A DNA stretch of 63,168 nucleotides, from the IMG/VR virus record IMGVR_UViG_2526164633_000022, positions 1 to 63,168 of that record; one strand, written 5' to 3'. The notes under the pieces were generated by a model that had not been told where the DNA came from, searched no databases, and saw nothing but the letters and a program-made list of their open reading frames with translations. Positions 33,584 to 33,659 of the stretch are shown in pieces. Numbering within the stretch: the stretch's first letter is position 1; each line of letters opens with the position of its first letter. A program made the position numbers and the translations under genes. This DNA is from a virus (lineage: Duplodnaviria > Heunggongvirae > Uroviricota > Caudoviricetes).

Positions 33584-33659
33584 GATGGTGTAGCTCAGTG
33601 GTTAGAGCTGGCGACTCATAATCGCACGGTCACCGGTTCAAGTCCGGTAGGGGCCACCA
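33584..33659 (+). tRNA. tRNA-Ile(CAU)-like gene with non-pairing acceptor stem (possible pseudogene)
   Basis: 76 nt; D-arm GCTC/GAGC, anticodon loop CTCATAA, T-arm ACCGG-TTCAAGT-CCGGT, 3' AGGGGCC-A-CCA match recalled E. coli ileX; 5' strand GATGGTG pairs at only 3 of 7 positions. Confidence 0.5.

Follow-up and report, generated by a model that had tools for sequence, protein, structure and literature searches.

An aberrant tRNA upstream of ban in a P1-like phage-plasmid is very likely a trnA'-'trnI fusion left by a deletion

The DNA analyzed here, a stretch of 63,168 nucleotides that we refer to as the window, is, judged from its sequence, a P1-like phage-plasmid. It shares ∼98% identity over 20 kb with phages P1 and P7 and with hundreds of P1-like plasmids from E. 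coli and Salmonella, and an Rfam scan located the immI C4 antisense RNA and its a1b1 targets, as expected for such an element (13996-14048 and 14116-14201, plus strand). The scan also returned a full-length match to the sok antitoxin RNA (17661-17835, plus strand; 114.9 bits), implying a putative hok/sok-type addiction module on this P1-like element.

Our interest was directed to the interval between dmt and ban. In P1, whose gene order was taken from the GenBank annotation, dmt is followed by the Pban promoters with the C1 operator Oban (Op72), a dicF-like region, trnA (Asn), trnT (Thr), plp and upl on the opposite strand, tciA, tciB, tciC, trnI (tRNA-Ile2, CAT), and ban. The same plan is found in P7, JL22, and SJ46. 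The corresponding region of the window contains the following features, all on the plus strand:

30893..32911 (+): dmt/dam DNA methyltransferase gene, an intact upstream neighbour taken from the ORF list and collinear with P1 dmt and P7 dam
32902..32929 (+): C1 operator Oban (Op72), which overlaps the Pban promoters; identical to P1 Obanab, P1ban, and P2ban
32930..33583 (+): untranslated leader of the ban operon, in the same order as upstream of trnA in P1, P7, and JL22
33584..33590 (+): GATGGTG, the 5' acceptor strand of trnA (tRNA-Asn GUU), equal to trnA nucleotides 1-7 in P1, P7, JL22, and SJ46
33591..33598 (+): TAGCTCAG, an 8-bp microhomology (tRNA positions 8-15) that is identical in trnA and trnI and within which the crossover falls
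33599..33659 (+): trnI (tRNA-Ile2, CAT) positions 16-76 including the encoded CCA, 100% identical to five relatives
33660..33939 (+): spacer between trnI and ban, as in relatives
33940..35304 (+): ban (DnaB-like helicase), intact with 454 codons as in P1, according to the ORF list, the sequence, and the P1 annotation

The Pban promoters drive an operon composed of the leader, the tRNA, and ban. Up to the tRNA, the ∼650-nt leader that runs from Pban to trnA has a mean column identity of 98% in a four-way alignment of the window, P1, P7, and JL22, and it contains no plus-strand ORF of at least 50 codons before an overlapping ORF at 33512. From 33591 into ban, the window aligns contiguously with Ro157c2YLVW (98.8%), SJ46 (97.9%), and P1 (96.8%). 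The ∼110 nt directly after the trnI part (33661-33771, plus strand) also show 89-90% identity to stretches of lambdoid phages, among them Stx2c/Stx2a-converting phages, cdtI, mEp460, and Ayreon, which are either unannotated or labelled 'hypothetical protein'; this likeness points to a putative shared module adjoining tRNA genes. In Ro157c2YLVW, the tRNA(CAT) is directly preceded by genes for a membrane protein and a lipoprotein, at the place taken by tciA-C in SJ46. The D6 locus contains tciA/tciB and a tRNA-Ser(TGA) and differs in its downstream genes; neither trnA nor trnT was found in the D6 stretch examined.

The tRNA-like element itself (33584-33659) is 76 nt long and reads GATGGTG TA GCTC AGTGGTTA GAGC T GGCGA CTCATAA TCGCA CGGTC ACCGG TTCAAGT CCGGT AGGGGCC ACCA, with the anticodon CAT at 33617-33619. 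A previous sequence-only reading of this DNA had described the D, anticodon, and T arms as canonical and the CCA as encoded. This description was borne out by the sequence, in which the D arm, the anticodon arm (7-nt loop), the T arm (TTCAAGT-type loop), and the CCA are all intact, and by a local match to Rfam RF00005. The same reading had counted three pairs out of seven between the acceptor strands GATGGTG and AGGGGCC. We arrived at the same count for the pairs 1-72 to 7-66 (GC, AC, UG, GG, GG, UG, and GA), only one of them being Watson-Crick and two G-U. Forcing the element into a cloverleaf gave −8.7 kcal/mol compared to −15.7 kcal/mol for the three arms alone, so that closing the stem carries a penalty of +7.0 kcal/mol. 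By comparison, P1 trnI, which is intact, goes from −15.7 to −27.7 kcal/mol once its acceptor stem (7/7 pairs) is formed.

ARAGORN did not call any tRNA or tmRNA gene across the whole 63-kb window. The RF00005 match covers only 33591-33648, corresponding to model positions 8-63 of 71, and the covariance model therefore does not fold the element as an intact tRNA. Its local score of 41.4 bits is above the gathering score of 29 (E = 2.2e-5 window-wide), whereas the intact P1 genes are matched over positions 1-71 with 74.5 (trnA), 72.9 (trnT), and 64.7 bits (trnI). The resemblance of the element to tRNA-Ile2 lies far beyond chance. Neither ARAGORN nor the Rfam scans found another tRNA-like element between dmt and ban, in agreement with the sequence-only reading.

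Alignment to P1, which that reading had recommended, resolved the element into two overlapping parts: nucleotides 8-76 are those of P1 trnI, and nucleotides 1-15 are those of P1 trnA. In a base-by-base comparison, positions 16-76 did not show a single mismatch to trnI of P1, P7, JL22, SJ46, and Ro157c2, and GATGGTG differed from the start of trnI (GGCCCTT in P1) at five of seven positions. The diagnostic bases that bound TAGCTCAG are of the trnA type at position 7 and of the trnI type at position 16. Matches of plasmids to the trnI side all start exactly at 33591 in BLAST searches. A megablast search with 33400-33800 was split in two; the left part, up to 33645, corresponds to the trnA region of P1 and P7, and the right part, from 33591, to the tRNA(CAT) region of Ro157c2YLVW, SJ46, and D6. 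Likewise, the 5' flank of the element is the trnA flank and its 3' flank the trnI flank.

The comparison with the individual parents can be summarized as follows. Nucleotides 8-76 are 100% identical to P1 trnI (P1_gt117, tRNA-Ile2 CAT, directly upstream of ban) and also to that of P7 and SJ46, and the hybrid agrees with P1 trnI in its 3' flank and in its location before ban, but P1 trnI starts with GGCCCTT and forms a complete stem, whereas the hybrid starts with GATGGTG and has lost it. The leader upstream of P1 trnA (P1_gt070, tRNA-Asn GTT) is near-identical to that of the window and positions 1-15 are identical, but from position 16 onward the hybrid carries trnI sequence, resulting in 24 mismatches over 76 nt and the anticodon CAT instead of GTT. 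A close likeness to enterobacterial ileX had also been noted before, and indeed, over its 76 nt, the trnI parent shares 89.5% identity with E. coli tRNA-Ile(CAT) (ileX/ileY), which is present in all 5426 complete genomes and has the same anticodon loop, CTCATAA, as the hybrid. ileX/ileY encode the chromosomal, lysidine-modified tRNA-Ile2 that reads AUA; unlike these, the hybrid lacks C4-G69, C5-G68, and the acceptor helix. The body that carries the CAU anticodon is of the Ile2 type and not Met or fMet, nucleotides 8-76 being those of P1 trnI, which is annotated as tRNA-Ile2. The tRNA(CAT) of P1-like phages is entered as tRNA-Met in some records and as tRNA-Ile in others.

BLAST comparisons with P1, P7, and JL22 each split into two blocks, which are collinear and join within the tRNA; the SJ46 locus breaks likewise. 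The segment missing from the window comprises 1585 bp in P1, 1658 bp in P7, 1781 bp in JL22, and 1306 bp in SJ46. None of these four segments matches anywhere in the 63-kb window, and a relocation of the trnT-tciC segment was rejected for this reason. A displaced 5' strand (GGCCCCT or GGCCCTT), for which a search had been suggested, is also absent from the window. All three phage tRNAs (Asn, Thr, Ile2) are therefore gone together with plp, upl, tciA, tciB, and tciC; promoter, operator, leader, and ban are kept intact despite the deletion. We consider it very likely that a deletion of ∼1.3-1.8 kb in the ban operon fused trnA to trnI and left the odd tRNA behind. One option of the sequence-only reading had been a recombination junction at which the 5' end was replaced: the trnA and trnI alignments uphold the junction but not the replacement, since the 1.3-1.8 kb between two tRNA genes would have been deleted. 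The pseudogene that it had named as another option follows as a consequence of this junction.

How could such a fusion arise? We propose an ancestor with the order Pban, leader, trnA(Asn), trnT(Thr), plp, upl, tciA-C, trnI(Ile2), and ban. trnA and trnI both lie on the plus strand, that is, in direct orientation, in P1, P7, JL22, and SJ46. They are identical at 47 of 76 positions, their longest exact in-register common word has 9 nt, and they share a D-arm block, TAGCTCAG[C/T]GGTTAGAGC, that matches at 17 of 18 positions. The two same-orientation genes could thus have acted as direct repeats, and a short-homology event would have joined them within the first 8 bp of the D-arm block, thereby removing all DNA between them. 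An 8-bp word in a block matching at 17 of 18 positions is too short for ordinary RecA-dependent exchange, and such short words are typical of slipped-strand or other illegitimate recombination at short direct repeats. RecA normally requires a longer stretch of homology than 8-18 bp. Replication slippage or another kind of RecA-independent illegitimate recombination was therefore probably responsible, a view that draws on the 8-bp microhomology.

Events of this type are familiar from E. coli, its plasmids, and its phages. RecA-independent deletions between short direct repeats reportedly feature in the lacI deletion spectra of Albertini et al. (1982) and in the work of Bzymek and Lovett (2001), and tyrT is an example of unequal exchange between tandem tRNA genes. 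As in known deletions between short direct repeats, the repeats here are separated by ∼1.3-1.8 kb, the junction falls in the shared 8-bp word, and one repeat copy is precisely lost together with the intervening DNA. In contrast to these cases, the repeats are two different tRNA species that have only the D-arm in common, and a non-pairing hybrid was therefore obtained instead of a functional recombinant gene. The trnA'-'trnI deletion is accordingly an ordinary event, a fresh instance of a known event type.

The junction rests on one assembly. Records with a match to either of its halves number 48 for phages, 587 and 722 for plasmids, and 787 for E. coli, and none of them spans it; exact-pattern scans of viral, genome, and metagenome contig collections returned no hit. 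Other conceivable hybrids, namely trnT'-'trnI (through an 11-nt shared word) and trnA'-'trnI joined in the second homology block, were not found in IMG/VR. Our searches therefore provide no evidence for fusion between tRNA genes as a recurrent route of cassette loss. A deletion that is recent and private to this sequence would fit these results; the uniqueness of the junction fits an artefact equally well. An artefact of assembly or amplification, an option that had been raised before, would mean that the real molecule has a complete trnA-trnT-plp-upl-tciABC-trnI region and that the two tRNA genes, identical at 47 of 76 positions, were collapsed or joined by chimeric reads. The absence of the junction from all other records of the collections searched would be expected in this case. 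However, assemblers normally need overlaps much longer than 9 nt to collapse a repeat, and the junction lies in an 8-nt word, with the longest exact in-register word of the two genes being 9 nt and thus far below such overlaps. Furthermore, both flanks are otherwise clean and collinear, and no other part of the 63-kb window matches the deleted DNA. We therefore regard an artefact as unlikely and return to the trnA'-'trnI deletion for its consequences.

In the fusion, the 5' strand of trnA faces the 3' strand of trnI; these do not pair, and therefore there is no acceptor stem. Lacking this stem, the hybrid is expected neither to be processed by RNase P nor to be aminoacylated. In addition, TilS of E. 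coli needs the pairs C4-G69 and C5-G68 to make lysidine (PMC1635315), and the hybrid has the mismatches G4-G69 and G5-G68 at these positions. Since both the acceptor stem and the TilS pairs are gone, the hybrid is almost certainly a dead relic that does not work as a tRNA.

The hybrid can form an alternative helix of 6 bp (−6.7 kcal/mol) between nucleotides 2-7 and C72-U77, in which the CCA and the first base of the trailer take part, because the partner strand of trnA, CACCATC, resembles C-ACCA-T of trnI. Some folded and processed RNA may be derived from the hybrid by way of this helix. A combined scenario builds on it: the hybrid, transcribed from Pban and folded in the alternative register, would be cut by tRNA-processing enzymes, resulting in a 5' end of the ban mRNA or an unmodified CAU tRNA-like RNA, and the D-arm homology of phage tRNAs would be a recurrent break-and-join point at which P1-like phage-plasmids lose or swap the bracketed accessory cassette. 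We think this very improbable. The narrower view that the hybrid is still expressed and used as a tRNA-like structure, as an RNase P/RNase E processing signal for the ban mRNA or as a MetRS-charged, non-canonical CAU tRNA, we hold to be very improbable as well. The hybrid does sit directly upstream of ban in an intact, C1-controlled operon, its D, anticodon, and T arms are intact, and the alternative helix contributes the energy given above. But with this helix the CCA becomes buried and 6 nt bulge out between T stem and acceptor, and the RNA fold of the whole region around the hybrid is no more stable than that of shuffled sequences (z = −0.46). Moreover, the identity pairs for TilS are destroyed, and there is no conservation, a second example being absent from the records searched.

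Finally, a single tRNA gene could have been the ancestral state, the relatives having gained the tRNA/tci cassette by insertion. We give this reading next to no credence and consider it effectively refuted by the base-by-base composition and the count of acceptor pairs: the content of the dmt-ban interval does vary among P1-like elements (Ro157c2YLVW, SJ46, D6), but a tRNA with unpaired acceptor strands cannot be a functional ancestor, hundreds of relatives carry two intact genes to which the respective halves are identical, and the breakpoint falls exactly in the 8 bp common to trnA and trnI.

Turning to what the trnA'-'trnI deletion may cost its carrier, AUA accounts for 11.5 per 1000 codons (19% of the Ile codons) and ACA for 14.0 per 1000 codons in 46 long ORFs of the window; these codons, which are read by lost phage tRNAs, are thus common in its genes. 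A modest translational cost of the tRNA loss is plausible. According to the relevant passage on a CRISPRi screen of P1, trnT, plp, upl, tciA, tciB, tciC, trnI, and ban are non-essential; trnA is not listed by that name in this passage (PMC10695390). As far as that passage goes, loss of the cassette should be tolerable, since the genes from trnT to trnI and ban are dispensable by CRISPRi.

The leader upstream of the hybrid contains a second RNA element. A tmRNA-like RNA occupies a conserved part of it (33122-33300, plus strand), with a 10-codon tag frame, ANDDLMMVAA*, at 33180-33212. It came up in a permissive Rfam scan of the leader as a sub-threshold match to the permuted tmRNA model (33107-33212; 24.1 bits compared to a gathering score of 47). 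The tag frame reads GCA AAC GAT GAT CTG ATG ATG GTA GCG GCC TAA, and its product, ANDDLMMVAA, can be compared with the E. coli ssrA tag, ANDENYALAA. A conventional start was not found in the window: an in-frame TAG lies eight codons upstream of the tag, without ATG, GTG, or TTG in between. The order of elements is an invariant AGCGACTTTGCGG..TTTAGAAACTGACCA..TAAAT, followed by the 10-codon frame, a hairpin with a pseudoknot, and a second hairpin.

This element is not restricted to P1-like phages but occurs in unrelated phage families. In a sensitive BLAST search, 258 phage records matched 32990-33330, including, besides P1-likes, Ackermannviridae, Schitoviridae, Drexlerviridae along with other siphophages of the T1-like kind, and one phage of Vibrio. 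The matches that we sampled fall in regions with poor annotation or none, and tRNA genes often follow them. At least 120 further loci came from a pattern scan of IMG/VR. Of 130 copies, 127 have a frame of exactly 10 codons and a stop, with tags such as ANDDLMMVAA, ANDDVVLMAA, ANDEQFLAVA, and ANEEMYLAVA, among others; the tag is always of the form AN[DE][DEN]xx[LM]x[AV]A, the first three codons of which were fixed by the IMG/VR search pattern while the remaining ones were free. On the 3' side of the stop codon, the hairpin stem occurs in at least five compensated versions, and its loop pairs downstream to form the pseudoknot, in four covarying versions (CCGA/TCGG, GTCG/CGAC, CCAG/CTGG, and CCAA/TTGG). 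In the second hairpin, the loop, GGTGTGATTAATAA, is conserved and the stem varies freely. ARAGORN did not call a tmRNA in any copy, and Rfam assigned no family at threshold, the tmRNA scores of the copies being 23-33 bits compared to the gathering score of 47; neither program found a tRNA-like domain for this RNA. We considered whether a tRNA-like domain could be formed by base pairing of its 5' end, GAUAGU, to the 3' acceptor strand of a tRNA located downstream, as with the tRNA-Ser of Sf11, and rejected this idea for the RNA in general, only 7 of the 130 loci being compatible with it. A full-text literature search did not reveal a description of this leader RNA. Its features suggest a phage RNA of wide distribution that imitates the mRNA-like portion of tmRNA, and it could be more interesting than the hybrid tRNA and may matter more.

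Two more structures were observed in the leader. A long hairpin (33301-33378, plus strand) directly follows the tmRNA-like core, and its arms, ACAACAGGTAAG(A/G)GC... and ...GCTCTTTCCTGTTG, are conserved. In other phages, these arms bracket the tmRNA-like core or tandem modules, and the hairpin interior, or inserts within the element, sometimes contain T-arm-like hairpins (GGGTTCGAATCCC). The bracketing arms and T-arm-like hairpins suggest processing stems or tRNA-like modules. In addition, a terminator-like hairpin with a T-run (33093-33118, plus strand) marks the end of the region called dicF-like in P1, and expression downstream of it would therefore need read-through.

For genome annotation, the relic calls for caution. 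Pipelines based on covariance models can report it as a tRNA above threshold, ARAGORN skips it, and an anticodon-based caller would label it tRNA-Met. For the biology of P1-like elements, the fusion represents a natural variant that would have lost three phage tRNAs and plp-upl-tciABC in one step, which fits the dispensability reported in the CRISPRi passage mentioned above. An isolate carrying this deletion would be a ready-made natural knockout for testing the contribution of the phage tRNAs.
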